Source: an uncultured Planctomycetota bacterium
GTDB taxonomy: Bacteria > Planctomycetota > SKW154 > DAOVDS01
Assembly: GCA_964641955.1 (NCBI GenBank)
Contig: CAZXNM010000003.1
Location: 197,813 to 261,812, forward strand
DNA: 64,000 bases
Direction of reading: 5' to 3'
The notes under the pieces were generated by a model, which ran no database searches, had not been told where the DNA came from, and worked only from the letters and a program-made list of their open reading frames with translations. The translations under genes and the position numbers were made by a program. Positions 7,411 to 57,243 of the stretch are shown in pieces. Within the stretch, counting starts at the first letter, position 1. Every line of letters starts with the position of its first letter.

Positions 7411-8226
7411 TTATCCCTCGGACTCAACGTGCGCTGCAATCGCCCTGGCGAGTCCCGGCATTGTATGCTCGCGGGCTTCTATGTCAATGCGCAGGCCGAG
7501 CTTCCTCGCCACGCGCGAGGTTACCGGCCCGATAGATGCCAGCCTGGCTTTGCCGAGAAACCTTCTCAACTGCTGCGGTGCAGGCAGTCTTCCGTTTCCC
7601 GCGATTGCGGCGAGGCTGCGGACCGTCGAGCCGCTTGCCACCGTGACGAAATCAACCTTCAGGACCCGTTCTCGCAGCTTTTTCGCACCGGTACTGACAG
7701 GCACAGTTTCGTATAGGCTTCTGACAGTTACTTTCGCGCCCGCCGCACGCAGCCGCCGCGGCAGTGTCTCTCTCGCGCCCTTCGCCCGCAGAAGCAGCAC
7801 GGTCTTTCCGCCTACGCCACCTGCTTTCATCATGTCGGCCACGGATTCGGCGATGTACTTTTCCGGCACCGCCTTCACGCGGACGCGGCGCTTCCTGAGC
7901 GCGTCGGCAGTCCCGGGGCCGATGGCGACCACGCTGCTGCCGCGCAGGGCCTTCCCGCCTGCTTCGGCTCCTGCACGGCGGAAGAAATCGTCAACACCAT
8001 TGCGGCTCGTGAAAATGACGTAATCAAACTTTAGCCTGCCGGCGCAGAAGCGCTCGATAAACCTGTCCAACCGGATTGACCGGACGGGCTGAATCTCAAT
8101 CAGCGGAAACTCGACCGGCGTTGCGCCGAGCCTGCGAAGTATACGCGAGAACTCGCCCGCCTGATGTCCGGCGCGGGTGACGAGGATTTTCTTTCCCGCC
8201 AGCGGTTTTCGCGCGCTTCTAAGCAT
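7411..8226 (-). CDS. hemD: uroporphyrinogen-III synthase
   Basis: Sits between hemC and hemB. KKILVTRAGHQAGEF...PLIEI and duplicated half-domains typical of HemD. ATG at 8226 chosen over the upstream ORF start to avoid overlap with hemC. Confidence 0.7.
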   Translation of the reverse strand: MLRSARKPLAGKKILVTRAGHQAGEFSRILRRLGATPVEFPLIEIQPVRSIRLDRFIERFCAGRLKFDYVIFTSRNGVDDFFRRAGAEAGGKALRGSSVVAIGPGTADALRKRRVRVKAVPEKYIAESVADMMKAGGVGGKTVLLLRAKGARETLPRRLRAAGAKVTVRSLYETVPVSTGAKKLRERVLKVDFVTVASGSTVRSLAAIAGNGRLPAPQQLRRFLGKARLASIGPVTSRVARKLGLRIDIEAREHTMPGLARAIAAHVESEG

Positions 8227-8227
8227 A

Positions 8228-9166
8228 TCAGCTGCTCCCGCCGCGGACCTGCTGGAGTATCTCTTTCGCTCCCGCACCCATAAGCTCCTGAGCCACTTTC
8301 CATGTGACATCGCGCCAGTCGCTCGAATCGCCGTCCGCCTGCGCTTTCAGGACCCGGCTGCCGTCGGGCGAGACGACGCACGCGCTCAGGGCGACCTTCC
8401 CGTCGCTTACACGAGCCATGACGCCGATAGGCGCGCGGCACCCGCCTCCAAGAAGGTCCAGGAGTTGCCTCTCTGCCAGCGCCTCGGCTCTCGTCGGTTC
8501 GTGCTCGATGGAGCGAACTATATCGATAATATCAGAGTCTCTCACGCGTGCCTCGATAGCCACGATTCCCTGCGCTGCGGCCGGCTGCATTACGTCCGGC
8601 TCCAGCATCTCGGTAATAACATCTTCTTTGCCAAGTCTCCTGAGACCGGCGGCTGCCAGGACGATTGCGTCGAGGTCCATGGATTCGAGCTTCTGAAGCC
8701 TGGTCGGCACGTTGCCGCGCATGGAGATAATGTCGAAATCGCCGCGGAATGCCCGTAGCTGCGCTGCACGGCGGATGCTGCCAGTTCCGATGCGGGCGCC
8801 CTGGGGCAGGTCGGCGAGCTTCGCTCCGCTGCGCGAGACAAGCGCATCGCGCGGGTCCTCGCGCTTGAGGACACCGGCGACGGCGAGCCCTTCCGGTTGC
8901 GACGTCGGCAGGTCCTTGAGGCTGTGGACGGCGATATCCAGCGTCCGGTTGAGAAGATTGCGCTCAATCTCCTTGGTAAAAACGCCCGTGCCGAGCCGGG
9001 GTATCGCTTCTTCGGCGAAACGGTCTCCCGATGTCGTTACCGTCCTGATTGTGAAATCATGGCTGGGCCAGACGGCGGCGAGCTGCTCGACGGCCCATTT
9101 TGCCTGCGCCAGGGCGAGGTCGCTTCCCCGCGTCCCAACCAGAATCCTGCGGGAACCTTTCTGCAA
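8228..9166 (-). CDS. hemC: hydroxymethylbilane synthase (porphobilinogen deaminase)
   Basis: RILVGTRGSDLALAQA...TSGD and the dipyrromethane-cofactor Cys region (LGGGCRAPIG). 312 aa. Confidence 0.9.
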   Translation of the reverse strand: MQKGSRRILVGTRGSDLALAQAKWAVEQLAAVWPSHDFTIRTVTTSGDRFAEEAIPRLGTGVFTKEIERNLLNRTLDIAVHSLKDLPTSQPEGLAVAGVLKREDPRDALVSRSGAKLADLPQGARIGTGSIRRAAQLRAFRGDFDIISMRGNVPTRLQKLESMDLDAIVLAAAGLRRLGKEDVITEMLEPDVMQPAAAQGIVAIEARVRDSDIIDIVRSIEHEPTRAEALAERQLLDLLGGGCRAPIGVMARVSDGKVALSACVVSPDGSRVLKAQADGDSSDWRDVTWKVAQELMGAGAKEILQQVRGGSS

Positions 9167-9273
9167 TGCTGCTCCTCTCCGTACCGTGGGCGAGAAACAC
9201 GAATTTTACGGGCGTCGTGCCGTGCATGTCAACATCCATTGCAATTCCGCCCGGCGCGAGGGTCACATTTATG

Positions 9274-9302
9274 CTTGAAGAGAACCGAAGCGATTAGTAC
9301 AA
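9274..9302 (+). promoter_or_regulatory. candidate sigma70-type promoter (TTGAAG-N17-TACAAT) for folD
   Basis: Hexamers at 9274-9279 and 9297-9302 in the divergent hemC/folD intergenic region. AAAGGAGGA RBS immediately before the ATG at 9355. Confidence 0.35.
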
Positions 9303-9354
9303 TCATAAGTTCCACGACAGAACCTGCAAGTTCACGAGTTGAAAGGAGGATGCA

Positions 9355-10248
9355 ATGGCGGCGGAGCTTATCGATGGCAAGGCTATTTCGCAGAAGATTA
9401 TCGAAGACGTGACAGCGGAGATTGAATCCGGCGCGGTCAAGCCGCATCTCGTTGCAGTTCAGTGCGGCGAGGACCCGGCCTCCATGTACTACGTAAACAG
9501 CCAGAAGAAGAAAGCCGAGGCGGTGGGAATACAGTACACGCTCGAGCAACTGCCCGCCGATACAACCCAGGACCAGCTAATAGCCAAGATAGAGGAGCTT
9601 AACAAGAATCCCGAGGTCACGGGCATGATTCTGCAAATGCCCGTGCCGGAAGGCGTGGACCGCAGGGCAGTCCAGCAGGCGATTAACTACAAGAAGGATG
9701 TGGAAGGAATCACGCCGACGAGCCTGGGGCTTCTCATGCAGGACAGGCCGGCGCAGGTGCCCTGCACGGCGCTCGGCGCGGTCGAGCTGCTGCACGCGGC
9801 CGTTGACAAGCTCGAAGGCCTGGACGTCACCATCGTGGGCCGCAGCGAGATTGTCGGCAAGCCGGTCGCCATGCTTCTTCTGTCCATGAGCCGGAGCTGC
9901 AGCGTCAGCGTCTGCCACTCGCGCACGAAAGACCTCGAAGGCGCGGTCAGGAAGGCGGATGTCCTGTTCGCAGCCGTCGGGAAGCCCGAGATAATCAAGG
10001 GAGAATGGATAAAGAATGGCGCGATAGTCATTGACGTGGGCATTAACCGCATACCGGTCCTCGATGAGAAGGGCGAGCCCGTTCTCAACGAGAAGGGCAA
10101 GAAGAAGATGCGCACGGTCGGCGATGTCGAGTTCGATGTTGCGAATGAGAGGGCGTCGAAGATAACGCCCGTTCCCGGCGGAGTCGGCCCGATGACCACG
10201 GCGATTCTTATGCGAAATACGCTCGAGGCGGCTAAGCGCCTCAAGTAG
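9355..10248 (+). CDS. folD: bifunctional 5,10-methylene-tetrahydrofolate dehydrogenase / 5,10-methenyl-tetrahydrofolate cyclohydrolase
   Basis: IDGKAIS N-terminus, YxxxK catalytic region, GRSEIVGKPVAMLLL...TVCHSRT Rossmann motif, PGGVGPMT. 297 aa. Confidence 0.9.
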   Translation: MAAELIDGKAISQKIIEDVTAEIESGAVKPHLVAVQCGEDPASMYYVNSQKKKAEAVGIQYTLEQLPADTTQDQLIAKIEELNKNPEVTGMILQMPVPEGVDRRAVQQAINYKKDVEGITPTSLGLLMQDRPAQVPCTALGAVELLHAAVDKLEGLDVTIVGRSEIVGKPVAMLLLSMSRSCSVSVCHSRTKDLEGAVRKADVLFAAVGKPEIIKGEWIKNGAIVIDVGINRIPVLDEKGEPVLNEKGKKKMRTVGDVEFDVANERASKITPVPGGVGPMTTAILMRNTLEAAKRLK

Positions 10249-24894: not shown

Positions 24895-25077
24895 AGCACC
24901 GAATATAGCCCGCCGCGTTCACATGTCAAGACATGCAAACGCAATACTGCCAAGAAAGTTGAAACACCCGGGCCGGAGTGTTGTTCGGGGTATTCCGGAT
25001 TTGGTTTTGTTTTGACAGAAAGGCGCCCTTGCGGTTAAACTCGCCCTGTCCTTCATCCGGCGCGTAAGAGGTTTTTC

Positions 25078-26637
25078 GTGAGGTTTCTCAAGGCACCCGT
25101 CGTTTTCGCACTTGTTATCCTGTCCCTGTTTGCGGGCTGCACGGGGTCAACGCCAAACTACAAGTTCAAGGTAGAAAAGAACATCTCCCACGTCTATATA
25201 AACAACGATGGGTCCATAGACATCGAATATCACATAACCTTCGAGAACCTGGGCGACCCGATAGACGTGGTTGACATAGGCCTGCCCCACGACGGCTACC
25301 GGCTCGACACGGCGCGGGCGGATGTTAATTCGTTCCCCCTGACGGACATAGACCGTTCGAGCTACATAGCGGTCGGCGTGGAGGTGCAGCTCGGTGAGCA
25401 CGCCATACCGAGGAGTCAGAGCGGCACGCTGAACTTCAGAATCAACAATCCGAAGATGGTCTTTCCCGACACCGAGGATGCGACGTATGCCAGCGTTCAG
25501 TTCTCGCCGACGTGGTTCTATCCCCCGTTCGTCGTCGGGACCACCCGCGTCGAGGTCCACGTCCACTTTCCCCCGGGCGTGAGCGGGAGCGAGACGAAGT
25601 ACCACGCCGTTGCGCCCACGTCCGATACCTATGCCGGCGACAGGCTGATTTTCACGTGGGTGAAAGAAGCCGCCCGCCAGGAAAAAATGATGGTGGGCGT
25701 GTCGTTCCCGAGGAAGTACGTTGACAAGGTATTCGACCCGTCCGAAGTGACCTTTGTCGAATCCATGGAGCCCACGGAGCCTTTCAACTGGGGTGCGCTT
25801 GCAGCCTGGCTGCCTTACATAGTGATTGCGTTCATAGTGATTCTGGGAGCAGTGGGAGGCGCTTTCGCGAACCGCACCAAACGGATGCACTACCTGCCGC
25901 CCGAGACCAGGATAGAAGGGCTCGGACCGTGTAGGAGCCTCGACCCGATAGAGGCGGCCATCGTGCTTGAACTGCCGCTTTCGAGAATCGTGGCGCTGGC
26001 CATGATGCAGCTCATACAGAAGCAGTGCATCGAGGTTAAGCAGGTTCATCCTCTCAGGGTCAATATCCTTGACGAGAACAAGCCGGGGCTTAAGGCCTAC
26101 GAGGAGAGCATATTGAAGGCGCTTGACCCGGCAAAGTACGATGATGAGAAGACAAGGGAAAGGCGACTTCACAACGCCGTGACGAAACTGATAGAGAGCG
26201 TGAGGGACAAGCTTAAAAAAGGCTTTTCCCGGAAAGCGACCGCGGATTTCTACCGCGGGAAGATTGAGCACATGTGGGGCAGAATCGAGCGCGACCCGCA
26301 GCTCGAGCACCTTGCATGGATTGCGCTGAACGATGACTACGTTAAGGAAATTGAGGAAAGTCCGGCCAAGCAGGAGAAGCTCGAACCTTTCTGGCGCGAT
26401 GGATATTACGACTATTTCCCCTCGCGGTACAGGCGGCGCAACATGTACTACATCTTCGATGATTTCGAGGAAGAGATGGTGCCGGACAATACAGGATTCA
26501 CGCACGGCGTCAGCAAGGTCACCAATCCCACGGCGTGGATACAGTCTTCCGGCTGGTCCTCGGGCGGCGGAGGCGGAGGGTCCTGTGCATGTGCGTGCGC
26601 CGGCTGTGCCTGTGCCTGCGCCGGGGGGGGGAGATAG
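25078..26637 (+). CDS. lipoprotein/membrane protein with DUF2207-like architecture and a Gly6-Ser-(Cys-Ala)n C-terminal tail
   Basis: Lipobox LFAGC, extracytoplasmic N-domain, one TM (WLPYIVIAFIVILGAVGGAF), a roughly 250-aa cytoplasmic part ending ...SGWSSGGGGGGSCACACAGCACACAGGGR. GTG start. A TTGACA-N17-TTAAAC candidate promoter lies at 25012-25040. Confidence 0.6.
   Translation: MRFLKAPVVFALVILSLFAGCTGSTPNYKFKVEKNISHVYINNDGSIDIEYHITFENLGDPIDVVDIGLPHDGYRLDTARADVNSFPLTDIDRSSYIAVGVEVQLGEHAIPRSQSGTLNFRINNPKMVFPDTEDATYASVQFSPTWFYPPFVVGTTRVEVHVHFPPGVSGSETKYHAVAPTSDTYAGDRLIFTWVKEAARQEKMMVGVSFPRKYVDKVFDPSEVTFVESMEPTEPFNWGALAAWLPYIVIAFIVILGAVGGAFANRTKRMHYLPPETRIEGLGPCRSLDPIEAAIVLELPLSRIVALAMMQLIQKQCIEVKQVHPLRVNILDENKPGLKAYEESILKALDPAKYDDEKTRERRLHNAVTKLIESVRDKLKKGFSRKATADFYRGKIEHMWGRIERDPQLEHLAWIALNDDYVKEIEESPAKQEKLEPFWRDGYYDYFPSRYRRRNMYYIFDDFEEEMVPDNTGFTHGVSKVTNPTAWIQSSGWSSGGGGGGSCACACAGCACACAGGGR
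26584..26631 (+). repeat. hexanucleotide (TGYGCN)n coding microsatellite followed by a G9 homopolymer at the 3' end of the upstream gene
   Basis: tgtgca tgtgcg tgcgcc ggc tgtgcc tgtgcc tgcgcc at 26584-26622 encodes CACACAGCACACA. Nine consecutive G at 26623-26631, then aga tag. Confidence 0.9.
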
Positions 26638-26651
26638 GCACCGGAGGTAAA

Positions 26652-28001
26652 ATGTCCGTATTCGGTTTCCTGAAGAAAGTCAAACCTCTTGAGAAGGGAA
26701 TATACTCCGCCCGCATCGACGAGCCGGAGGGCAACTACAGGCTTCACCTGCGAATTGAAGAAGACGGAAGCGGGGTCCTGGTGATAAACGCTTCCAGGAT
26801 TCTCCACATGAACCAGACTGCGACGGAATACGCGAAGATGATTATCGACGGTCTCGATGTTGACGAGGCCGCTAAAAAAATGCGTTCGAGATACAGGGTC
26901 AGGTTGGACATCGCCAGAAGGGATTATCAGAAAATCAATGATACCATAAACGCACTCTCGCGCACGGACCTCGTCTGCCCCGTAAGCTATCTCGACGTCG
27001 AGATGATTGAGCCCGACTCCGTCGTCCCCTCCGCACCATATCGCATGGACATCGCGCTTACTTACGAATGCCAGAACAAGTGCGCCCACTGCTACGTCGA
27101 GGAGAAGGAAAGGGGCGAGCCGCTGAGCTTCGAGCAGTGGAAGCAGGCGCTGGACAGGCTGTGGGCGGCGGGGATTCCTCACGTATGCTTCACGGGCGGG
27201 GAGCCGACGCTGCACGAGAACCTGGAAGGGCTGATTGAATACGCCGAGGACATCGGCATCGTGACGGGGCTTATAACGAACGGCAGGAAGCTGGCGGACG
27301 AGGCGTACACGCGCAGGCTGATTGACGCCGGGCTGGACCACGTGCAGATAACACTCGAGAGCCACGATGAGAAGGTGCATGACGAGATGGTCGGCAGTCC
27401 AGGCGCGTGGAAGGAGACTGTCGAAGGCGTGAAGAATGCCGTCAAGCTGCCGCTCTACACGATTACCAATACCACGCTTCTCAGAAACAACGTCGGTGAA
27501 ATCGAGAAGACCGTGGAATTCCTCGCTTCTCTCAACGTCGATGCATTCGCCTGCAACGGCCTTATTTACAGCGGAAAGGGCAGGGAGCACGAAGGCGGAA
27601 TCAGCGAGGAGGAGTTGCCCGGCATCCTCGAACGAGTCAAGGATGCGGCGTCGCTGAACGGGCTGAGATTCATCTGGTACACTCCAACGCGCTACTGCAC
27701 GTTCAACCCGGTGGACGCGGGCCTCGGCATTAAGCAGTGCAGCGCCGCAAAGCTGAACATGTGCATAGAGCCGGACGGCACGGTGCTGCCCTGCCAGTCA
27801 TATTTCGAGTCCGCGGGCAATATCCTGGCGGATTCGTTCGACTCGATATGGAACAGCGACACGAGCAGGACCCTGCGCAACCGCGAGTGGATTGACGATG
27901 AGTGCAGGCAGTGCGAGATGCTGAAGCTCTGCGGGGGCGGGTGCCCCCTGCGCCGGGAAGGCGAATCGTTCATCTGCCGCGATTCCAAGGCCTCCTCGTA
28001 G
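26652..28001 (+). CDS. radical SAM / SPASM-domain peptide-modifying enzyme with N-terminal PqqD-like RiPP recognition element (RRE)
   Basis: CxxxCxxC (CQNKCAHC) about 125 aa from the N-terminus. C-terminal SPASM pattern C(x2)C(x5)C(x3)C (CRQCEMLKLCGGGC). The N-terminal 110 aa (DGSGVLVINASRILHMNQTATEYAKMIIDGLDVDEAAKKM) matches the PqqD/RRE pattern. GGAGG RBS 4 nt before the ATG. Confidence 0.85.
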   Translation: MSVFGFLKKVKPLEKGIYSARIDEPEGNYRLHLRIEEDGSGVLVINASRILHMNQTATEYAKMIIDGLDVDEAAKKMRSRYRVRLDIARRDYQKINDTINALSRTDLVCPVSYLDVEMIEPDSVVPSAPYRMDIALTYECQNKCAHCYVEEKERGEPLSFEQWKQALDRLWAAGIPHVCFTGGEPTLHENLEGLIEYAEDIGIVTGLITNGRKLADEAYTRRLIDAGLDHVQITLESHDEKVHDEMVGSPGAWKETVEGVKNAVKLPLYTITNTTLLRNNVGEIEKTVEFLASLNVDAFACNGLIYSGKGREHEGGISEEELPGILERVKDAASLNGLRFIWYTPTRYCTFNPVDAGLGIKQCSAAKLNMCIEPDGTVLPCQSYFESAGNILADSFDSIWNSDTSRTLRNREWIDDECRQCEMLKLCGGGCPLRREGESFICRDSKASS

Positions 28002-28013
28002 GAAACGTATGGA

Positions 28014-28766
28014 TTGAACACAGGGCAGGCATCCAAACACCTTGAAGAGCTGGAAGCCTACTACGCCGCGCAGGCGAGGTGGACGAAGGCAGCGCGCAGC
28101 TACCTTTACAGGCGCGCGGGCGTGACAAGGGCCCGAAGGATACTCGAGGTCGGGTGCGGTACGGGCGAGATAACGAGCGAACTTGCCCGCAGGGCGAAGG
28201 CGAGCATTACGGCGGTCGATATCGACGGCGCGATGGCGCAGTACACCCGGGAACGCGTGCTTTCGGCAGATGTGATAGCGGCAGATGCGGCGAGCCTCGA
28301 TTTCCCTGACGGCTCGTTTGACGTGGCGGTCTGCCACTTTACCCTGATGTGGTGCAGTGAACCTGCGGCAGTTCTCGTGGAGATGGCGAGGGTTGTGAGG
28401 AAATCGGGGTGCGTAATCGCGCTTTCCGAGCCGGATTACGGGGGTGCGCTGGAGTACCCGGATTCCATGGGATACCTGCGCCTTGTGGCGGAAGGCCTGC
28501 GCCGGCGCGGCGCCGACCCGGAAATCGGGAGGAAACTGTACAACATATTTTCGCAGGCTTCTCTTGAGACGGAAACGGGCCTTGCGAGCACGGTGTGGAC
28601 CGGAGAGTCCTCGAAGGCCGACTTCGAAGCCTGCCGCTGGCTCGTACGGGATGTGGTCGATGAGGAGGAGTTCATCAGAATCAGGAATGCGCACTGTGAT
28701 GCGCTGCCGGTGGAAGGATGTATATGCTTCCTGCCGGTATTCTGGGCCTTCGGGCTCAAGAAGTAG
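28014..28766 (+). CDS. class I SAM-dependent methyltransferase
   Basis: Motif I ILEVGCGTGEIT, motif II/post-I DIDGAMAQ, FDVAVCHFTLMW. TTG start is uncertain. Confidence 0.75.
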   Translation: MNTGQASKHLEELEAYYAAQARWTKAARSYLYRRAGVTRARRILEVGCGTGEITSELARRAKASITAVDIDGAMAQYTRERVLSADVIAADAASLDFPDGSFDVAVCHFTLMWCSEPAAVLVEMARVVRKSGCVIALSEPDYGGALEYPDSMGYLRLVAEGLRRRGADPEIGRKLYNIFSQASLETETGLASTVWTGESSKADFEACRWLVRDVVDEEEFIRIRNAHCDALPVEGCICFLPVFWAFGLKK

Positions 28767-28784
28767 TTTGACAAGGAGGAAGAA

Positions 28785-29783
28785 ATGCCTGAGCTGCGTC
28801 AGAACATGGCCACGAAGGAGTGGGTCATAATCGCGACCGAGAGGGCCAAGAGACCGGACCAGTTCAAGTCCGAGTCGAAATCCGACGAGGAGGTTCCCGA
28901 GTACGACCCGAAGTGCCCGTTCTGTCCCGGCAAGGAGGACAAGACGCCTCCCGAGACGTATCGCATCGATAAGGACGGGAAGTGGCTGGTGCGTTCCTTT
29001 CCCAACAAGTTCGCCGCGCTGCTGCCCGAGGGTGATACCGACAATGCGTTCACCGGCGTGATGCGCAAGATGAACGGCGTGGGCTTCCACGAGGTGATTG
29101 CCGAAACGCCGCTGCACAACCAGCACATGTCGAGCCTGGATATCGACCATTTCGCCAGCGTAATCAAGGTGTATCACCAGCGCTTCAATCACATCGCCGC
29201 CGACCCCCGAATCGAGCAGGTGATAATCTTCAAGAACCACGGTGCCGGCGCGGGCACCTCGCTTGTTCACCCGCATTCGCAGCTTATTGCCCTGCCCGTC
29301 GTGCCCGCTCATATCAGGCATCGCGTCGAGGAGGCGATGCGCTACTTCGACGACCACGGCGAGTGCGTCATGTGCGAGATGATGGAAATGGAGCTGAAAG
29401 AGAAGACGCGCGTGGTCCTTGAGACGGAGCATTTCGTGAGCTTCGTTCCTTACGCAAGCTTTTCTCCTTTTCACGTATGGCTCGTTCCGAAGGAGCATCT
29501 CTCCTGCTTCGGCCACATATCCGAGGATGTGATGCCGGATATGGCGCGCAATCTCAGGAGCGTCCTGCAGAGGCTGTACGTCGGGCTGAACAACCCGGAT
29601 TTCAATCTGGTGGTCAATTCCGCGCCTCTTGACGGCGGCACGCGATACTACCACTGGTATCTTTCCGTGGTTCCCCGCGTAACCAGGACGGCCGGCTTCG
29701 AGCTCGGCTCGGGGATGTTCATCAACACCTCGCTTCCGGAGGCGGGTGCGCAGTACCTGAGGGAACAGGAAGTGGAGGACTGA
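28785..29783 (+). CDS. galT: galactose-1-phosphate uridylyltransferase-family (GalT-type HIT) nucleotidyltransferase
   Basis: Zn site KCPFCPG plus the HxHxQ active site (HPHSQLIAL), about 330 aa. AGGAGGA RBS. Substrate specificity not inferable. Confidence 0.75.
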   Translation: MPELRQNMATKEWVIIATERAKRPDQFKSESKSDEEVPEYDPKCPFCPGKEDKTPPETYRIDKDGKWLVRSFPNKFAALLPEGDTDNAFTGVMRKMNGVGFHEVIAETPLHNQHMSSLDIDHFASVIKVYHQRFNHIAADPRIEQVIIFKNHGAGAGTSLVHPHSQLIALPVVPAHIRHRVEEAMRYFDDHGECVMCEMMEMELKEKTRVVLETEHFVSFVPYASFSPFHVWLVPKEHLSCFGHISEDVMPDMARNLRSVLQRLYVGLNNPDFNLVVNSAPLDGGTRYYHWYLSVVPRVTRTAGFELGSGMFINTSLPEAGAQYLREQEVED

Positions 29784-29790
29784 AAAGGGG

Positions 29791-30813
29791 ATGAAGAACC
29801 GCATCCTCAGGAGGGCTCAGCTATTCGGGCGCGCCCTGGCATGCGCCGCAAGGTCGCGTCTCCTGACGCACCGCCCGTTCACCCTGTCGCACAGGATAAC
29901 CGGGCGGTGCAACGCCCGATGCGAGACTTGCCTGTGGAGGGGCAGGTTCGAGGAGGAAGCCGGTACCGACCGGATTGTCGAGGCTTACGAGCGCGCACGT
30001 GATGCGGGTTTCATATCGACGACATTCTGGGGCGGCGAGCCGCTGCTGCGCGCCGATATGCCGGAAATCGCGCGCCGCGTCCGCGGCCTTGGCCTGACGG
30101 TGGGGCTCATCACGAACGGCTATTATCTTCCCGAGAAGGCGCGGGAGCTTTCTGGCGCCCTCGACTATATCATTGTATCGCTGGATGTGCCGAATCCCGG
30201 GCACGACAGGCTGAGAGGGGTAGAGGGCATCTTCGACAGGGCGGTCGAGGGGATGCGCGTTCTTAGGAGCTTCGACCCGACGGTCAAGATTTTCATCAAC
30301 TCGGTCGTCAGCAGGTTGTCCTATCCGGCGGTGCCCGGGATGGCCGACTTCGCCCGCAGACTCGGCCTTTCCGTGACGTTCGAGTCCACGAACACGGGCG
30401 TGACTCTCGACGGGACGCGCAATGTGCAGTTGAGGCTGCCGCCCGACATTGAGCGGGAGGCTTTCGACAGGATACTGGCGATGAAGATGCGCGGCCTGCC
30501 CGTCAACAACTCGTCCACGTATCTCCGGATGTTCGCGACCGGGCGCACGCGCTACGCCTGCCAGAATCCGAAAGTGGCCCTTGGCGTCGGACCGGACGGC
30601 ACAATCACCGCCTGTCTCGACAGGCCGGTTTCCCTGGGCAACTTCTACAGCGACAGCCTGGTGGAGATTTTGGACAGTTCGATTCTCATGGATATGCAGG
30701 CGAGAGCGGAGAACTGCTGGCTCTGCGTGGACAGCGGGACAATCGAAACCTCGCTCTTCTGGCAGTTCAGGCGGGAGGTGGTCTTGAGCACGCTGAGGTT
30801 ATTCTTGAAATGA
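29791..30813 (+). CDS. radical SAM protein (MoaA/NifB/PqqE-like, with C-terminal twitch/SPASM-like Cys cluster)
   Basis: ITGRCNARCETC (CxxxCxxC), GGEPLL glycine-rich SAM motif, C-terminal C...C...CWLC. Confidence 0.8.
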   Translation: MKNRILRRAQLFGRALACAARSRLLTHRPFTLSHRITGRCNARCETCLWRGRFEEEAGTDRIVEAYERARDAGFISTTFWGGEPLLRADMPEIARRVRGLGLTVGLITNGYYLPEKARELSGALDYIIVSLDVPNPGHDRLRGVEGIFDRAVEGMRVLRSFDPTVKIFINSVVSRLSYPAVPGMADFARRLGLSVTFESTNTGVTLDGTRNVQLRLPPDIEREAFDRILAMKMRGLPVNNSSTYLRMFATGRTRYACQNPKVALGVGPDGTITACLDRPVSLGNFYSDSLVEILDSSILMDMQARAENCWLCVDSGTIETSLFWQFRREVVLSTLRLFLK

Positions 30814-31631
30814 GCGGTGCGGACAGCATGCTGGATTTTGCGATTGATGTTTCGAAACGGGCCGGAAAGAAGCTGCTCGGCCGGTTCGAAAAGCTGGGCC
30901 GGTCCGATATCTCGTTCAAGGGCAAGCGCAATCTCGTGACCGTTGCGGACAACGAATCGGAAGAGTTCATCGTCGCCGAGATACGCCGTTCGTTCCCGGA
31001 GCATACGATTCTGGCCGAGGAGCGGACGAAGGACAGGGAAGAAACCGGGTACAGGTGGATAATCGACCCGCTCGACGGCACGATTAACTACGCGCACGGC
31101 CACCCGTTCTTCTGCGTCGCCATGGCGCTTTTGAGGGAAGGCGAGGTCGTGCTCGGGGTCGTGCATGCGCCGCTGCTTGGCGAGACGTATCATGCCGAGT
31201 TGGGAAAAGGGGCTTTCCTCGGCGGCAGGAAGCTCTCCGTAAGCGATTCGGACGAGCTGATAAACTCGCTGCTGGCGACCGGGTTCGCTTACGTTCGCGA
31301 AGAGACGATGTCGAACAACCTCGCCAATTTCAGCCGCCTGTCGCTGAAGGCGCGGGGAGTGAGGCGCTACGGTTCGGCCGCAATCGACCTCGCCTACGTG
31401 GCGGCCGGGCGGCTGGATGGCTTCTGGGAGTTGTACCTGGCGCCTTGGGACGTGGCGGCCGGCAGCCTTCTTGTTACCGAGGCGGGAGGAAAAGTTACTG
31501 ATATCGCCGGCGGAGATGATTACATTTACGGCCAGAACATCGTTGCATCAAACGGGTGCATTCATGATATTATAAGAGAGAATATTGAACCGTTCGAGCG
31601 AAGTGAGCGCACCGACAGTCAGGGCGACTGA
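30810..31631 (+). CDS. inositol monophosphatase-family (SuhB/CysQ/FBPase-like) phosphatase
   Basis: IDPLDGTINYAHG and WDVAAGSLLVTEAGG motifs. ATGA start/stop overlap with the upstream radical SAM gene (translational coupling). Confidence 0.85.
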   Translation: MSGADSMLDFAIDVSKRAGKKLLGRFEKLGRSDISFKGKRNLVTVADNESEEFIVAEIRRSFPEHTILAEERTKDREETGYRWIIDPLDGTINYAHGHPFFCVAMALLREGEVVLGVVHAPLLGETYHAELGKGAFLGGRKLSVSDSDELINSLLATGFAYVREETMSNNLANFSRLSLKARGVRRYGSAAIDLAYVAAGRLDGFWELYLAPWDVAAGSLLVTEAGGKVTDIAGGDDYIYGQNIVASNGCIHDIIRENIEPFERSERTDSQGD

Positions 31632-31652: not shown

Positions 31653-32195
31653 TTGTATCTCAAACTTACGGCGGCGGCGTTTCTCTTGCTGGCGGCATGT
31701 GTCGGCTGCGTATCACCGCCAACGGGCGCCGCGCCCGACCCGGGACGGACAGGTCTTCACCAGAAGGGAATCGCGATTGCGGCCAAGGATGCCTTGAAGG
31801 ATATCAACCTCAAGACGCTGGCGGGCATGAAGGTTTGGGTCGATGTGGCCTGCCTCTCGGGGCTTCAGTCGGGCGGCGACCGAAGCGAGGATGCGCGCTT
31901 CCTGGAAAACCTGATTGTTGAGATGCTCGTCGAAAGCAGGATAAGAATCGTCGAGAAGCGCGAGGCCGAGGCCGTGCTGCGCGGCGTCTGCGAGGTGATG
32001 GGCACCGATTCGGTAATCCGCGTCTTCCCGCATCCGCTGCTGCCGCTTATGTACTACGCCAAGCACAAGGCGCACGTCAAGCTGCACCTGTACGCATACG
32101 AGCCGAAGGATTCCCAGCCGATAACCGTCGCCGACTGCGAGGGGTCGTACTCGTGGTCCGAATGGTCGATATTCGGCCTGGGGCCTTACCGCTGA
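31653..32195 (+). CDS. lipoprotein, function unknown
   Basis: Lipobox LAACVGC. GGAGGA RBS before the TTG start. Last gene of the plus-strand operon. Confidence 0.5.
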   Translation: MYLKLTAAAFLLLAACVGCVSPPTGAAPDPGRTGLHQKGIAIAAKDALKDINLKTLAGMKVWVDVACLSGLQSGGDRSEDARFLENLIVEMLVESRIRIVEKREAEAVLRGVCEVMGTDSVIRVFPHPLLPLMYYAKHKAHVKLHLYAYEPKDSQPITVADCEGSYSWSEWSIFGLGPYR

Positions 32196-32725: not shown

Positions 32726-33589
32726 TCAAACCTCGCCGATGCGCAGGGAATGGAGTCCCGATATTACGGCGAACGTCTTTTCGTCTTTATGTGCCCGTCC
32801 CCACGAGCCATCCCTGCCGGCGGTCCGGGCCAGCCTGTCAAGCGCGAACTCGAACTCCTTTAGCGCATCGAGACCTCCGATAACGCCGAGCGTTTCCAGC
32901 GTGAAGAAGAACGGGAATCCTTTCCAGTTGCCGGATGCCGTTCTGCGGCTTCTGAGCGTTTTCAGGCCTTCGTTCGCGTATGGCCGGTACTGCGGAAAAC
33001 AGTTCGCGACGCGCCAGAAGGCGCCCGTGCAGTTCCAGCAGCAGTAAATGCCCCGCCGCGAGAACTTCACCATGTTTCTGAAGGCTTCCAGCATGTCGCC
33101 GACGCGAGGGTCATCCTTCGCGCCTGCATCGAGGAGGACTCCAAGTGCAAGCTCGCCGTAAATGTGGCAGAACGAGGCTCGTGAGGGGAGTCTCTCGCCG
33201 GTAGGCAGTATGAAGGCATTCTTGAGGTCGCTCTCGGTGGGTGCGGGAAACACGCCGCGATACGAATGGGGCTGCCCCTGCCGCCACAGGAGCCATTCCG
33301 CGGCATCGGCGACGTGCGGGTCGGAGACGTCATAACCGAGGCGCACAAGCAGGTCGAGCCGGCGCACCGTCTCTACGAGCGAGTCGTTCCACGAGCCATT
33401 GCTGCGCTGGCCGGCGGTCAGGGCCTTGTATGCGGCACGCGTGTCGGCCTCGTCGAACAGCGCAAGGGCGGCCAATGAAAGAGGAGTGGACCGGCTGCGG
33501 AAGTAGTCGATAGCATCTTTTCTCTCTGTCACGTCCTCTCCGTCGGGGCGGGCTGTTTCGGCCCGCACGCCTTGACGCACACGCCGCAT
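32726..33589 (-). CDS. hypothetical protein with QW-type (prenyltransferase/squalene-cyclase-like alpha-alpha toroid) repeats
   Basis: Recurrent Q...NGSW / SGNWKG / DGSWGR motifs. Low-confidence family call. Confidence 0.35.
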   Translation of the reverse strand: MRRVRQGVRAETARPDGEDVTERKDAIDYFRSRSTPLSLAALALFDEADTRAAYKALTAGQRSNGSWNDSLVETVRRLDLLVRLGYDVSDPHVADAAEWLLWRQGQPHSYRGVFPAPTESDLKNAFILPTGERLPSRASFCHIYGELALGVLLDAGAKDDPRVGDMLEAFRNMVKFSRRGIYCCWNCTGAFWRVANCFPQYRPYANEGLKTLRSRRTASGNWKGFPFFFTLETLGVIGGLDALKEFEFALDRLARTAGRDGSWGRAHKDEKTFAVISGLHSLRIGEV

Positions 33590-38466: not shown

Positions 38467-38955
38467 ATGAAACTCTCGCAGGCCCTTTCGGAAAACCTGA
38501 TATTCTGTCATCTCAAGGGGCAAACCAAGGAAACCGCCCTCAACGAGATGATAAGAGGGCTTGTCAGGTCGGGCAAGGCCGCGGACGAGAACGCTCTCCG
38601 GGAAGCGGTGCTCGGCAGGGAAAAGCTCCAGAGCACCGGCATAGGCGGCGGAATAGCAGTCCCGCACGGAGTTACCGGAACGGTGCGCAGCCTGACTTGC
38701 GCGCTGGGAGTGTGCCGCGATGGCCTCAAGTACGGTGCAATCGACAAGCGGCCCGTCCACCTTGTTTTCATGTTTGTCAACAACAAGGCCCGCGACGTCC
38801 AGTATCTCGCTCTTCTGGCTTCGGTCTGCCGGCTCTTCGACGACAAGCTGTTCTGTGAAAAGGTCGTAGAATCGACGGCGCCGGACGGCGTCCTCGATTT
38901 GATCAGGGAGCGGGAAGCCAGCGAGTACGAGTACATGCGCAATCTGCCGACCTAA
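38467..38955 (+). CDS. PTS EIIA-type (fructose/nitrogen, PtsN-like) regulatory protein
   Basis: GIGGGIAVPHG active-site His context. About 160 aa. Confidence 0.75.
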   Translation: MKLSQALSENLIFCHLKGQTKETALNEMIRGLVRSGKAADENALREAVLGREKLQSTGIGGGIAVPHGVTGTVRSLTCALGVCRDGLKYGAIDKRPVHLVFMFVNNKARDVQYLALLASVCRLFDDKLFCEKVVESTAPDGVLDLIREREASEYEYMRNLPT

Positions 38956-41900
38956 GGCAGGTCCCCGCCTTCGGGAGCTTCGGAATACCAGAAGAACGCG
39001 CCTGAAAGCACCGTCTGCCTTGAGTCCGGCGGCAGCGCTTCGAGCACGAGCAGGAACGATTTCTCGAAGACCATGGCATCCGAAGCGTAAAACCTGTACT
39101 GAATGGTCGTAGCTTCATGCTTCTGGAGGAGGCCCGACATGGGAAGGGTGAAGGGACCGCCTTCGTAGAAGTTCGCGCCGCCGAAGTAATCGTCAATGCC
39201 GGTGGAGTGCATCACGGACCTGTCCGTCGAATCCGCGAAAGCCATGATGTCCGAGTCGAGGTATGAAATCTCGCCCAGCGAGTCGAGGCCGACCATGCAG
39301 CCGACGTAATGGCCGGCTCCCTTCACCGAAAGGAGCCGTATGCTCTCTCCCGGTCCCGCGATGGCGGTTCTCGAGTGGCAGCAGAAATAGCGCTCCGCCC
39401 GTGTGCCCCGGGGAAGCCTGGTAATGCATGCGCGGACCGTTGCCCTCGCAATGTCGGAGCCCCTGTTCGTGAGCACAATCCTGGCAGACTTGGTGAAAGG
39501 CATCGGGTAGTGAATGTATCCTTCGGTGCCGCTGAAGCCCGCGGTCAGCCCGAGCCATGGGAAGGTTCCACCTTTCTGGCCGAAGATGTCGGCCAGCGAA
39601 GAGCCTACTCCCGCCGTCTCGGACCCATCCCAGTAAATCTGAAGGATAATCTGTTCCATATCCTCGCGCTTCGCGCATTCGACTCTCAGGCATTTGATAA
39701 CGGCGGGGCCTGTAAATGTAATTACTTCGGCTTTTCCGCCGGGAGGGAGTATGGTTTCTTCCAATTCCTTCGCGCCGGGGCAGCCCGAGTGCATGTTACC
39801 CGCGTCGCGGCCGAGCCGCACGGCCAGGGTCGCAAGTTCTCTCTCCAGCCCTTTCAGGATGTTCATTGTCGAGTTCCGTATCCCGGCAGGGGATTCGTGA
39901 AGACAGTAATCCACCTGGCAGAACCTGGGTGTACCTACCGTTGCGATTACGAGGCGCTTCGAGAACCATATCGGCACGGAAGATACGGAGCCGCCGCCGG
40001 AGGCCTTGCCCGAGGCTACCAGAGGATGCCTGAACGGGAACGAGTTGCCTTCGAACATCTCTTCGGGCGTTACATCGATGCCCGGCTTACTCTCGTCATC
40101 GAAGTAGAAGCGTATGCGCGACACCTTGTCGGAACCGCCCAGGCGCAGCCAGAAACGCCGTATTACTCCCGGACCTTCCGCGTCGAATATCACGTATTCT
40201 CCGTTGTCTTTCCTGTAAAGGTATGAGCTTGTGCCGGAGAAGCCGTCATCGTTGTCGCCGCTCCTGTCGTGCGTTCCGTAGCTCGCGCAGCGCGTGCCGA
40301 GCCTGCCGGCGAGGCCGTCGAGTTCGGTCATTGCAACCGGGTTGTCCGGTCCTATCGGCTGGCCTGGAGGCGGGGGCATGTCAGAAAGCTGCTCGACCAG
40401 GACCGCGCCTTCGTCGAGCGGCACGCTGATTTCTCCACCGGTAGCCGCCGTTATGCTGCTTCGGAAATTGCCGAGGGCATCCGGAACCATCCTGGTAATC
40501 CTGGCATACGGCGATTTCACCTTCAGATTTGCCGTTTGTCCCGGTTTCTCGGCCCACGCCATGAATACTGGCTGCTTTTCCGAAGGAAAGCTTGTTACGG
40601 CGACGCCGTTTGAAGACGAGTGCATTCTGGCCCGTCCGAGGTCGCAGTTGCCGAGAGCGTGAATAAGCAGCGAAGATACGTGATAAACCGGCCTGGGCAT
40701 GCAGTCGCTGGTCAGGAGGCCGTCGAGAGCGAATGTCCCCTGGCTGCCGCGCAGGGGAGAATCCTTGAGCGGACCGAAAATCACAACTGTGACGCCCGCG
40801 TTAGCGAGCAGCGACAGACAGGCCGGAAGCTCGGTCGCTTTTTTCAGGGAGCAGAGATAGTCGCTTTCAAGCCGTGCGGTGGTGCTTCTGGCTCCGATTG
40901 CACCCTGGCCGAGCTGCGTGCACCAGAGCAGCGGCGGCTTGGCTGATGCCATCCTGAGAGAGCGCACGAACTCGGACAGCTCGGTCTTGAGCGATTCCGG
41001 GGAGAGGTTCGAGGAGACCGAGATGCCTTCGACCATGTCTCTCAACTGCTTCCCGTCCGCGAACCTGTGCAGGATGAGCGACTCGACGGCGCCCGCCGTG
41101 CCGTACCAGCGCCTGTCCCCAAGAGGGATAGGCCCCATGAAGAGCTTGACGGATGCGTCCCTTCTCCTGACCGTCGCTGCCGCCTCTTCTATCACGGCGG
41201 CATATTTCTTGTACGACGCCACCGGGTCTGTGCCGGGGTCAAGCGCGATTTCCAGGAATCTCGCCTTCGCGCCCTCTCCTTTCAGGGCGGTGTTCAGAAT
41301 GCGCTCCAGTCCCAGGGCCACCGTGCCCGCCCTCTCGAGCAGGTTGCTCGATATTTCCAGGCGGATAATTTGTTCGAGTCCCGCCTTGTCGGCGAGCATC
41401 TGGTGCTGGCGCAGCCTGTTGCGCTCGGTCTCGTAGCTGTCTTCCCAGGCGGCGCTTGACGTGCAGTAAATGACCCTGCCCGCGCCCGAGGACGTTATCT
41501 GCCTGTAGTTGATTTTCCCCGTCTCGGCAGAAACGGCTATTCCGAAGTTCCAGCTCCCCTCGGAGTCGCTGGGCATCCAGGGAAGAATCGTGCTGCGCTC
41601 GTACAGGTTCCAGAGCGAGACGAATCTCGCCGTGTCTATATCTTCGAGCATGAGGCGCGTGCGCTCGGCGAGATTCCGGGCCAATGCGGCGATGTCTTCC
41701 TGCCTGCCTGAAATTGCAAGGTTCCGCAGCCTGACCAGCGAGCTTTCTCCCAACTGCTGCTCTATTTCCGGACCGTATCCCCTGTCGGCGACGGCCGCCG
41801 CGGCCAGAGCAAACTCCTGCAGGCTCTTTCCAGCCGGGGACTCGCCCGCTTCCGGCAGCTTCCCGAGGTATCGCAGAGTCTTCCCCGCTTCCTGAGCAAT

Positions 41901-42671
41901 TTCCCTGTCTTCTTCGCTCAGCTTCAGTACCAGGGGAGGTATGTCCATGATGTTTGCGATGCAGCCGAAAGTCTGGCAGGCCCTTAGCCTGATTTCCCTG
42001 TCCGGGCTGTCCATGGCGCTTTCGAGCAGCGGGCGCAGGTCACGCCGTCCCGAGAGGATGGCATTTTCCCTCAGGTAGGAGAGGGCCGTAATGGCGGTCC
42101 TGCGGGTCTGCGTCTTGCCGGCGTAATAGCTGCTGACCAGGTAATCAACCGTCTCGGATTTGGGGTTGGCGTTGAGATAGTCGTATGCGAGCGCCCACCT
42201 GCTCGAATCGGCTGACAGCACCATTGAAGGGTCGAGGAACAGAAGCAGCCCCCGGTCGGCGCTGTGGTCCGCAAGCAGTTCGAGCAGCTTGTCCTTCAGC
42301 TCCTTGTCGGTCGAATCGCTGTGCCACAGATGCAGGTAAACCGTTATCAGTTCTTTCTGGTCGGACTCGAGAAGCCCTTCCACGGCGAGGTCGCGAAGCT
42401 GAGGGTCCTTGATGAACGACCTGAAAAAGACGTGTCTCGCCTCGCGGGGACGATTATTGATAAACCAGCGGAGAGCCTGCGTTCTGGTTTCGCTGGCCCC
42501 GTATTCGGCCTTCAGTGCGCGAATCTGAAATCCTATCCATTCGCGTTGGAAGAAGGCGATGATAATCAGAATAAGCAGGACTGCAAGCAGCCACTTGAGG
42601 ATTCCCCTGCGCTTCTTGACGTTCTTTGGGGGTATGTGGAATTTCGTGCGCGTCTTCTCGGGCTCGTTCAT
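38952..42671 (-). CDS. large membrane-anchored multidomain protein (N-terminal TM, HEAT-like repeats, central glycoside-hydrolase-like region, C-terminal beta-sandwich possibly DUF2961/GH172-like)
   Basis: 1239 aa. TM ILKWLLAVLLILIIIAFF, then alpha-solenoid repeats. C-terminal half has motifs GPGVIRRFWL and GIDDYFGG...YRFYASDAMVF. Domain calls are tentative. Confidence 0.55.
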   Translation of the reverse strand: MNEPEKTRTKFHIPPKNVKKRRGILKWLLAVLLILIIIAFFQREWIGFQIRALKAEYGASETRTQALRWFINNRPREARHVFFRSFIKDPQLRDLAVEGLLESDQKELITVYLHLWHSDSTDKELKDKLLELLADHSADRGLLLFLDPSMVLSADSSRWALAYDYLNANPKSETVDYLVSSYYAGKTQTRRTAITALSYLRENAILSGRRDLRPLLESAMDSPDREIRLRACQTFGCIANIMDIPPLVLKLSEEDREIAQEAGKTLRYLGKLPEAGESPAGKSLQEFALAAAAVADRGYGPEIEQQLGESSLVRLRNLAISGRQEDIAALARNLAERTRLMLEDIDTARFVSLWNLYERSTILPWMPSDSEGSWNFGIAVSAETGKINYRQITSSGAGRVIYCTSSAAWEDSYETERNRLRQHQMLADKAGLEQIIRLEISSNLLERAGTVALGLERILNTALKGEGAKARFLEIALDPGTDPVASYKKYAAVIEEAAATVRRRDASVKLFMGPIPLGDRRWYGTAGAVESLILHRFADGKQLRDMVEGISVSSNLSPESLKTELSEFVRSLRMASAKPPLLWCTQLGQGAIGARSTTARLESDYLCSLKKATELPACLSLLANAGVTVVIFGPLKDSPLRGSQGTFALDGLLTSDCMPRPVYHVSSLLIHALGNCDLGRARMHSSSNGVAVTSFPSEKQPVFMAWAEKPGQTANLKVKSPYARITRMVPDALGNFRSSITAATGGEISVPLDEGAVLVEQLSDMPPPPGQPIGPDNPVAMTELDGLAGRLGTRCASYGTHDRSGDNDDGFSGTSSYLYRKDNGEYVIFDAEGPGVIRRFWLRLGGSDKVSRIRFYFDDESKPGIDVTPEEMFEGNSFPFRHPLVASGKASGGGSVSSVPIWFSKRLVIATVGTPRFCQVDYCLHESPAGIRNSTMNILKGLERELATLAVRLGRDAGNMHSGCPGAKELEETILPPGGKAEVITFTGPAVIKCLRVECAKREDMEQIILQIYWDGSETAGVGSSLADIFGQKGGTFPWLGLTAGFSGTEGYIHYPMPFTKSARIVLTNRGSDIARATVRACITRLPRGTRAERYFCCHSRTAIAGPGESIRLLSVKGAGHYVGCMVGLDSLGEISYLDSDIMAFADSTDRSVMHSTGIDDYFGGANFYEGGPFTLPMSGLLQKHEATTIQYRFYASDAMVFEKSFLLVLEALPPDSRQTVLSGAFFWYSEAPEGGDLP

Positions 42672-53075: not shown

Positions 53076-54188
53076 CTAATCATCTGCGTTGAGTTTGAAG
53101 GCGCCATCCGAAGGCTTGAATGCATGGAAATCGGGCTGCTTCGCAATTTGCTGCTCGTAGCCGACGCGCACCTTCCTCGTAAACTGGCTGACTGACTCTC
53201 TGCGAACGAGGCTTACTACGCAGCCGCCGAATCCGGCACCCGTCATTCTCGCCCCGAGCACGCCGTCCGTGTTTCTTGCGAGGTCAACGACAATGTCCAG
53301 CTCGCGACAGCTCACCTCGAACAGGTCCCGCAGCGAATCGTGGCTGTCGTAGAAGAGCCTCCCAAGTTCGTCCATATCCGAAGATTCAAGAGCCTTCACG
53401 GCGTTGAGTACTCTATGATTTTCATTTACGACGTGTTCGCATCGCTTCGCCACTGATTCAGGCAGCAGGTGTTTATTCTCCTGCAATTGTTCAGAAGTAA
53501 CATCCCGCAGCGATGCAGCATCAAGCCCGGTTTCCCGAAGGATTCTGACGCCTTCACGGCATTCGTCTCTTCTCCTGTTGTACTCGGAGGAGGCGAGGCG
53601 CCTTTCCACTTTCGTGTCAATGATTACGAGACTCGCATCTTCCGCGGGGAAAGGCACATGCCTGTATTCAAGGCTTCTGCAGTCCAGGAAGAGGGCTGTG
53701 TCTTTCTGCCCGAAGACCGAGGCGAACTGGTCCATAATGCCGCATTCCACCCCGACGAATTCGTTCTCCGCTCGCCGGCAGAGATGGGGAATCTCCGTAT
53801 CCGCGACTCCGAGATTGAACATCTTCGCGAAAGCGAGGCATGCGGCCACTTCGATTGCGGCTGATGAACTCAGGCCCGCGCCCTGCGGCACATTGCCGCC
53901 GATGCGCATCTCCGCGCCGCCGAGAACAAAGCCCCGGTCGAGCAGCACGCTGGCAACACCCTTCACATAGTTCGCCCAGGTGTATTCCGGGTCTGACCTG
54001 ATATCATTAAGCGCGAAAATGTGTTCTTGGTCGAAAACCTCCGAGTAGAGACGGACCGAACCGCCTTCGCACCTGTCAGCTTCAATCCAGACGCATCTGT
54101 CAATCGCCACAGGCAGCACGAAGCCTTCGTTGTAGTCGGTATGCTCGCCTATCAGGTTGACTCTGCCCGGCGCTTCCACGCGGACCAT
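53076..54188 (-). CDS. galK: galactokinase
   Basis: APGRVNLIGEHTDYN (galactokinase signature), GAGLSSSAA (GHMP motif), GARMTGAGFGGC. Confidence 0.9.
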   Translation of the reverse strand: MVRVEAPGRVNLIGEHTDYNEGFVLPVAIDRCVWIEADRCEGGSVRLYSEVFDQEHIFALNDIRSDPEYTWANYVKGVASVLLDRGFVLGGAEMRIGGNVPQGAGLSSSAAIEVAACLAFAKMFNLGVADTEIPHLCRRAENEFVGVECGIMDQFASVFGQKDTALFLDCRSLEYRHVPFPAEDASLVIIDTKVERRLASSEYNRRRDECREGVRILRETGLDAASLRDVTSEQLQENKHLLPESVAKRCEHVVNENHRVLNAVKALESSDMDELGRLFYDSHDSLRDLFEVSCRELDIVVDLARNTDGVLGARMTGAGFGGCVVSLVRRESVSQFTRKVRVGYEQQIAKQPDFHAFKPSDGAFKLNADD

Positions 54189-57084: not shown

Positions 57085-57243
57085 CTCACTCCAACACCGA
57101 CGACGTTGTGGCGAACAGGTGAGACTTCCCAAGTCAATATCATAATTGAACTTGTCCGGATTTCAAGCACTTTTTAGCAGGCGCGGTTACAAATATGCAA
57201 CTGTGCGCATCTGCTGTGCGCTCCAAACGGGCCAAAAAAGGCC

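Follow-up and report, generated by a model that had tools for sequence, protein, structure and literature searches.

A GalT-like nucleotidyltransferase of the At5g18200 branch in a probably mosaic radical SAM gene cluster of a planctomycetal genome

The window analyzed here is a 64,000-nucleotide stretch from an uncultured Planctomycetota bacterium (GenBank assembly GCA_964641955.1, contig CAZXNM010000003.1, positions 197,813 to 261,812 of the forward strand). It carries a gene for an enzyme of the galactose-1-phosphate uridylyltransferase (GalT) superfamily among genes for radical S-adenosylmethionine (rSAM) enzymes. A sequence-only reading of positions 28014–31631 had tentatively placed two rSAM enzymes, a SAM-dependent methyltransferase (MT), the GalT-like enzyme, and an inositol monophosphatase (IMPase) family protein in one sugar- or cofactor-tailoring pathway, and had proposed that the GalT-like enzyme is not on Leloir pathway duty. 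All of the domains it named were upheld by Pfam and NCBIfam. The cluster extends beyond this segment. The + strand between 25078 and 32195 holds seven close-set open reading frames (ORFs), spaced in order by 11, 12, 18, 7, −4, and 21 nt. The features of the locus are:

25012..25041, + strand: sigma-70-like promoter candidate TTGACA-18-TAAACT, a consensus match upstream of the first cluster gene.
25078..26637, + strand: 519-residue membrane/lipoprotein, called the tail protein; first cluster gene, preceding rSAM1.
26584..26634, + strand: C-terminal tail CACACAGCACACAGGGR of the tail protein, with a Gly/Ser-rich linker before it.
26649..28001, + strand: rSAM/SPASM enzyme 1 (rSAM1), 450 residues, with CxxxCxxC at C141/C145/C148.
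28014..28766, + strand: class I SAM-dependent methyltransferase (MT), 250 residues, TTG start, assigned by Pfam.
28785..29783, + strand: class I GalT-superfamily HIT nucleotidyltransferase (GalT-like) of the At5g18200-like clade, 332 residues.
29791..30813, + strand: rSAM/SPASM enzyme 2 (rSAM2), 340 residues, with CxxxCxxC at C40/C44/C47; facultative, between the GalT-like and IMPase genes.
30810..31631, + strand: SuhB-type inositol monophosphatase family protein (IMPase), 273 residues, with DPLDGT and WDVAAG motifs.
31653..32195, + strand: predicted lipoprotein, 180 residues; last gene of the unit, after IMPase in all close relatives.
53076..54188, − strand: galactokinase, outside the cluster and given for context, with GHMP and GalKase_gal_bdg domains.

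The ORFs and their junctions agree with the packing of the GalT-like gene between MT and the second rSAM gene that had been read from the sequence. An AGGAGG ribosome-binding site lies 6 nt 5' of the GalT-like ATG, a GGAGG site lies 5' of rSAM1, and rSAM2 begins 7 nt past the GalT-like stop. The ATGA coupling of IMPase is also real, and the overlap is formed by the rSAM2 stop and the IMPase start; it is not a GalT-IMPase junction. A consensus scan returned three promoter-like sites against 2.3 expected in shuffles. The surroundings are core chromosome, with hemB, hemC, PheRS, ThrRS, ValRS, clpX, panCD, folK, and pss/psd. The galactokinase noted 24 kb away on the opposite strand is genuine, both by its domains and by an end-to-end identity of 43% to E. 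coli GalK. The 64-kb window contains no second galT and no galE or galM.

The GalT-like protein is a full-length GalT-family HIT enzyme, as had been claimed. It matches both half-domains, GalP_UDP_transf (PF01087; 76.1 bits, cutoff 22.1) and GalP_UDP_tr_C (PF02744; 41.4 bits, cutoff 29.2). The KCPFCPG motif at residues 43–49 (C44-x2-C47) and the HPHSQ motif at residues 162–166 (H162-P-H164-S-Q166) do not vary across a 20-sequence alignment, and H164 is predicted to be the nucleophile. The zinc-site candidates are C44/C47/H102/H162, and a second CxxC is present at C194/C197. Proteins of this kind are publicly named "galactose-1-phosphate uridylyltransferase" because they pass the broad TIGR00209 model (145 bits for the window protein, cutoff 102.1). 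The window protein falls far short of the E. coli-type equivalog PRK11720 (161.5 bits versus a cutoff of 448).

The top match across PDB sequences is Arabidopsis At5g18200 (1z84), which aligns over the full length with 253.8 bits, compared to 114.7 bits for Pyrobaculum GalT (6k5z), 110.8–112.2 bits for E. coli GalT, and 89.8 bits for human GALT. At5g18200 also leads in MAFFT identity with 39%, ahead of Pyrobaculum GalT (30%) and E. coli GalT (27%). At5g18200 is sister to the bacterial clade that holds the GalT-like protein in a neighbor-joining tree built with no bootstrap. Both proteins have the second CxxC and a C-terminal loop GFE-G-G--IN that are absent from E. coli GalT. No Ap4A phosphorylase family or structure matched the GalT-like protein at the thresholds used in Pfam, NCBIfam, and the PDB. 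These comparisons place the enzyme, by sequence, in a bacterial clade sister to At5g18200, and not with E. coli and human GalT or with the Ap4A phosphorylases. PMC6329318, citing McCoy et al. 2006, reports At5g18200 as an ADP-glucose phosphorylase and not a GalT; no other member of its branch is known to be characterized. At5g18200 (PDB 1Z84/2H39) has the same HxHxQ and N-terminal CxxC and aligns end to end, but the likeness is one of sequence, and at 39% identity the same function is not assured. E. coli and human GalT (PDB 1HXP, 5IN3) belong to the same superfamily and have the same fold, nucleophile motif, and N-terminal Cys-x2-Cys. They differ in that the window protein is only 27% identical to E. 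coli GalT (about 111 bits), carries the second CxxC where E. coli GalT is arranged otherwise, and has a C-terminal sugar loop of another kind; the galK/galE/galM context of E. coli GalT was not seen near it.

The GalT-like family is large, with 7500 matches at E≤1e-10. The best 120 of these are 52–87% identical to the window protein, and their named sources span many phyla. Gene neighborhoods were compared at 80 loci listed among the matches, all from species-representative genomes (Elusimicrobia, Acidobacteria, Cyanobacteria, Nitrospirae, and others). In tblastn searches, none of IMPase, rSAM1, rSAM2, or GalK was found within ±10 kb of these 80 loci, and MT gave only weak opposite-strand matches (24–32% identity) at four of them. 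The 101 immediate neighbors, taken from our own greedy ORF calls, match 163 Pfam families, and even the most frequent of these occurs in only 5 of the 101. The GalT-like gene is thus normally a stand-alone gene with neither a Leloir nor an rSAM context.

Seven distinct relatives of the window were compared, six of which have a complete GalT-like protein that is 72–87% identical to that of the window. The L numbers are our handles for the compared loci. Their arrangements are:

L085/L087: GalT-like 87% identical; IMPase directly after it.
L086: same GalT-like protein as L085; MT followed by GalT-like.
L004: GalT-like 82% identical; rSAM1, MT, GalT-like, IMPase.
L089: GalT-like 81% identical; ABC exporter, then GalT-like, a 227-residue gene, rSAM2, IMPase.
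L088: GalT-like 78% identical; GalT-like followed by IMPase.
L001: GalT-like 77% identical; ABC exporter, then GalT-like and IMPase.
L003: GalT-like 72% identical; pilMNO, then GalT-like and IMPase.
L173: first 18 codons of GalT-like on the contig; tail protein, rSAM1, MT, start of GalT-like.

The GalT-like, IMPase, and lipoprotein genes and a − strand DUF4416 gene are kept in every close relative that spans the region. The two rSAM modules vary. Of the six close relatives in which the GalT-IMPase junction is covered, five lack rSAM2 (L085, L004, L088, L001, and L003) and at least three lack tail protein-rSAM1-MT (L001, L003, and L089). The two patterns can be opposite: L089 has rSAM2 without rSAM1-MT, and L004 shows the reverse. 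In blastn alignments, window positions 29784–30810, which cover rSAM2, stand where L085 has a 66-bp spacer. The presence and absence of both modules are interleaved across the GalT tree. No compared contig other than the window carries all five genes of the proposed pathway. Read most simply, the region has an unchanging core and two facultative cassettes that have been repeatedly lost or exchanged, always at the same positions. A recent insertion of rSAM2 was considered and dropped, given that rSAM2-IMPase is also found in L089 and in L090–L093 and that the GalT tree shows the modules interleaved; an rSAM2 that was present in the ancestor and repeatedly lost is the better fit. The modules were also examined for signs of foreign DNA, and none emerged: modules and core genes have the same GC content overall and at third codon positions (GC3). 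Separately, a 287-residue − strand ORF at 32726–33589, between DUF4416 and the panD block and with no Pfam match, is another variable gene of this region; it is in L001 and L004 and not in L085 and L003.

The tail protein carries a lipoprotein-type signal ending in ...LFAG|C. A single strong transmembrane segment spans about residues 238–266, with basic residues after it. Its matches to DUF2207_C and TIGR04222 are weak. HMMER searches gave a family of 645 cluster representatives at E≤1e-3. Among the best 150 of these, about 120 end in the window tail or a near variant, and the rest mostly look truncated. The tail is identical among proteins that are only 34–62% identical overall. From locus to locus its third codon positions vary; what selection preserves is therefore the peptide. 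rSAM1 is encoded directly 3' of a tail protein of about 520–560 residues in four of four lineages; the loci outside the window are L173:1576-3138, L174:6426-8000, and L176:6290-7972. The window, L004, L173, and L174 all have MT right after rSAM1. Searches for further contexts of the rSAM1/tail-protein pair gave no plasmid match, and no true family member was found among viral contigs. The motif of the tail is in no paper of the literature searched, which also contained nothing linking DUF2207 with radical SAM or GalT with radical SAM/SPASM.

rSAM1 scores 41.5 bits for SPASM (cutoff 21.5) and belongs to a large family of proteins of about 455 residues, the top 120 matches being 51–87% identical. 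No curated NCBIfam model reached its cutoff. Among solved structures, SkfB (71.5 bits) and PqqE (71 bits) come nearest to it. PqqD (PF05402) gave no match in the window rSAM1 at E≤0.01, and many homologues that are 53–57% identical carry it; in those homologues, the N-terminal extension is recognized as PqqD, which resembles a RiPP recognition element (RRE). The SkfB/PqqE likeness, the PqqD-bearing homologues, and the invariant Cys-rich tail encoded upstream are the reasons for reading rSAM1 as a putative peptide or protein-tail maturase, which is more likely than a sugar- or cofactor-tailoring enzyme. The probable role of rSAM1, judged from sequence, would be to modify the tail of the upstream protein, the tail being the putative substrate. 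Like the RRE-containing rSAM/SPASM peptide maturases SkfB, PqqE, and AlbA, rSAM1 has a Cys-rich putative substrate encoded just upstream. The difference is that the substrates of those enzymes are short precursor peptides, whereas the putative substrate of rSAM1 forms the C-terminus of a protein some 520 residues long that has a transmembrane segment. The tail-protein/rSAM1 pair may be a new system for the modification of protein tails.

rSAM2 matches Radical_SAM with 58 bits and SPASM with 27.7 bits (cutoff 21.5). Its rSAM core is closest, among solved ones, to that of BlsE, a cytosylglucuronate decarboxylase (59.6 bits), and there are 449 homologues at E≤1e-10. More distant homologues that are 34–39% identical (L120–L171) lie in a different recurring neighborhood, where 23 of 150 neighbors are a DrrA-like ABC ATPase, 12 a PycTM-like membrane protein, 10 a metallo-beta-lactamase-fold protein, and 8 a DeoC/LacD aldolase. 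MT matches Methyltransf_11 with 84.6 bits; its ArsM-like and DVU_1556-like scores were set aside as too weak to use. IMPase matches Inositol_P (PF00459) with 241.5 bits (cutoff 27), is nearest to bacterial SuhB/IMPase structures (183–223 bits), and falls below the cutoff of the PRK10757 equivalog (200.7 versus 332). The DPxDGT and WDxAAG motifs are common to it and E. coli SuhB (PDB 2QFL). A distinction from SuhB is the placement of the window type, which is preceded by rSAM2 in three organisms. By its sequence, IMPase looks like the general SuhB-type protein of the organism.

We favor, with moderate confidence, a mosaic operon whose At5g18200-type nucleoside diphosphate (NDP)-hexose phosphorylase/nucleotidyltransferase keeps a general function of its own. 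The cluster would consist of three units with separate histories. The first, tail protein and rSAM1 with or without MT, probably modifies the invariant Cys-rich tail of a membrane protein. The second would be a constant core of GalT-like, SuhB-type IMPase, and lipoprotein. The third would be rSAM2, a facultative gene in front of IMPase. The first and third appear to vary at fixed positions, and the second to stay constant. Family knowledge suggests that the GalT-like enzyme would work by a ping-pong mechanism: His164 would take a nucleoside monophosphate (NMP) from an NDP-hexose and free hexose-1-phosphate, and the NMP would then be passed to phosphate or to another hexose-1-phosphate. Comparative genomics points to a general sugar-nucleotide/sugar-1-phosphate function that would not be dedicated to the rSAM genes.

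Several observations weigh against this reading. Tail protein-rSAM1-MT-GalT-like occurs again in L174/L175 in the same order and with gaps of 0–27 nt, the proteins being 43% (tail protein), 58% (rSAM1), 41% (MT), and 60% (GalT-like) identical to those of the window. The flanks there are wholly different, with SelA, CstA, and DAHP synthase upstream and DUF2284 downstream. The L174 GalT-like protein is not sister to the window lineage; the nearest protein is P0015 (78%), whose source label is Planctomycetota. It is unlikely that a gene occurring roughly once per genome came to lie twice two genes 3' of rSAM1 by chance, so a facultative link of the GalT-like enzyme to the rSAM1/MT module is possible. 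Our first conclusion, a GalT-like enzyme without any rSAM link, was softened by this block. The genes after the tail protein-rSAM1 pair of L176 (L176:9421-16932) encode a CehA/McbA-type PHP metallohydrolase, a PMT_2 glycosyltransferase, an M20 peptidase, and a GH38 alpha-mannosidase, so a sugar/phosphate theme recurs 3' of the pair. The comparison of rSAM1 covered three independent contexts. rSAM2-IMPase adjoin again in L090/L091 and L092/L093, where rSAM2 is 57–60% and IMPase 61% identical to the window proteins; the flanks in L090–L093 are LysM upstream and a 3-keto-disaccharide-hydrolase domain downstream, with no GalT nearby. The rSAM2-IMPase coordinates are 29791–31631 in the window, L089:7994-9837, L090:10001-11835, and 8001-9829 in both L092 and L093. 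All seven window genes are tightly packed, positions 25012–25041 are the sole promoter-like site 5' of a + strand gene, and the consensus scan found no + strand terminator-like sites within the cluster. The literature searched yielded no characterized bacterial member of the At5g18200-sister clade. The recurring MT-GalT (L174) and rSAM2-IMPase (L090–L093) adjacencies leave room for some functional coupling.

Two side observations concern the L174 block. The DUF2284 protein after the GalT-like gene (L174:11187-11705) has a relative in the C-terminal part of MbdU, a metal-binding selenoprotein; upstream, at L174:793-2178, lies SelA. DUF2284, SelA, and the Cys-rich tail together hint at metal or metalloid chemistry.

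The alternative that survives best makes the GalT-like enzyme a facultative but genuine part of the tail-protein/rSAM1/MT system, perhaps alongside rSAM2 and IMPase. As the tail or a small-molecule product is elaborated, the enzyme would then act on a nucleotidyl or sugar-phosphate group by supplying, transferring, or removing it. The four-gene block of L174, with its different flanks and non-sister GalT, argues for it, as do the adjacency of MT and GalT-like in the window, L004, L086, L173, and L174, the second lineage with rSAM2-IMPase, the tight packing without an internal promoter-like site, and the sugar/phosphate enzymes of L176. The fragments MT-GalT, GalT-IMPase, and rSAM2-IMPase all match the gene order of the window. 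However, the module is at 0 of the 80 other listed GalT-like loci, and close relatives that are free of it have an equally conserved GalT-like protein (77–81% identity) that keeps the invariant residues. Neither MT nor GalT-like follows the pair in L176, the recurrence comes from a single independent lineage, and the window cluster has no glycosyltransferase. We consider this alternative possible but unlikely. The earlier proposal of a HIT enzyme that works for the product of the rSAM operon is at best weakly supported.

A second alternative is that the GalT-like enzyme is a real Leloir galactose-1-phosphate uridylyltransferase, the partner of the remote galactokinase, and that its position in the cluster is irrelevant. 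The bona fide galactokinase needs an outlet for galactose-1-phosphate, the GalT-like protein is the sole GalT homologue in the window, and it passes TIGR00209. Pyrobaculum GalT (6k5z), deposited as a galactose-1-phosphate uridylyltransferase, has a CxxC at the C194/C197 position. Pyrobaculum GalT is catalytically active as a GalT. Against these points stand the far closer relationship to At5g18200, the PRK11720 result, the lack of galK/galE/galM nearby, and the finding that galK is near 0 of the 80 listed relatives; the judgment is made from 64 kb of genome. We regard the Leloir assignment as doubtful. The sequence-only reading was probably right that the enzyme is not on Leloir duty, and the relatives show no clean GalT clade with a conserved Leloir context, because the enzyme falls on the At5g18200 branch and galK is within 10 kb at 0 of the 80 listed relatives. 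Clade and context support this view and leave it unproven, since a galactokinase exists and 64 kb of the genome is visible.

A third alternative joins the GalT-like enzyme and IMPase in a two-step route from NDP-sugar to sugar-1-phosphate to free sugar, by analogy with plant VTC2/VTC4. Plant VTC4 is an IMPase-family L-galactose-1-phosphate phosphatase (PMC11066809) that acts after VTC2, a HIT GDP-L-galactose phosphorylase. This precedent of an IMPase-family sugar-1-phosphate phosphatase would give the same two-step logic, a HIT NDP-sugar phosphorylase-type enzyme with an IMPase-family phosphatase, and the two genes are neighbors, directly or with rSAM2 between them, in the window-lineage relatives that span the region. 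Unlike the plant pair, the GalT-IMPase pairing is confined to one lineage: IMPase is within 10 kb at 0 of the 80 other listed GalT-like loci. IMPase is also of the generic SuhB type, and, since the adjacency belongs to a longer syntenic stretch, it could be simply inherited. A dedicated two-step route is improbable.

Least probable, and quite unlikely to hold, is a single pathway of the six enzyme/substrate genes at 25078–31631 that would post-translationally elaborate the invariant (CA)3G(CA)3GGGR tail of a widespread membrane protein, with rSAM1 modifying or cross-linking the cysteines, MT capping them, and HIT, rSAM2, and IMPase making, attaching, or trimming a sugar-phosphate or nucleotide-derived decoration. 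The five-gene sugar- or cofactor-tailoring pathway of the sequence-only reading is not supported: the rSAM modules come and go, no other compared contig has all five genes, rSAM1 looks like a maturase, and IMPase is SuhB-like.

A single tail pathway, if true, would give a GalT-superfamily enzyme a new role in protein maturation. The mosaic reading has consequences of its own. Genes of this clade are present in thousands of metagenome-assembled genomes, and the named ones are called "galactose-1-phosphate uridylyltransferase." That annotation probably misleads metabolic reconstructions, because neither sequence nor gene context backs a Leloir role for the clade. A tightly packed and apparently cotranscribed cluster can be a patchwork, which calls for caution in inferring pathways from one genome. 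The tail-protein/rSAM1 pair, a by-product of this analysis, may matter more: it unites a large unnamed protein family that has a near-invariant Cys/Ala tail with a conserved rSAM/SPASM enzyme encoded after it in every context compared, and is a directly testable modification candidate. The recurrence of MT-GalT beside tail protein-rSAM1 provides a concrete, testable hypothesis.

Other features of the window were recorded. A 668-residue antisense ORF at 27798–29804 (− strand) runs across the end of rSAM1, MT, and GalT-like. Its GC3 of 0.59 is the lowest of the local ORFs, the sense genes it overlaps have strong homology support, and the likeliest explanation is a spurious reading frame in GC-rich DNA. 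A 656-residue HEAT-repeat protein (54228–56198) and a third radical SAM gene of 301 residues (56227–57132) are located immediately upstream of galK, also on the − strand. A 1239-residue protein with a C-terminal DUF2961/GH172 domain is encoded at 38952–42671 on the − strand.

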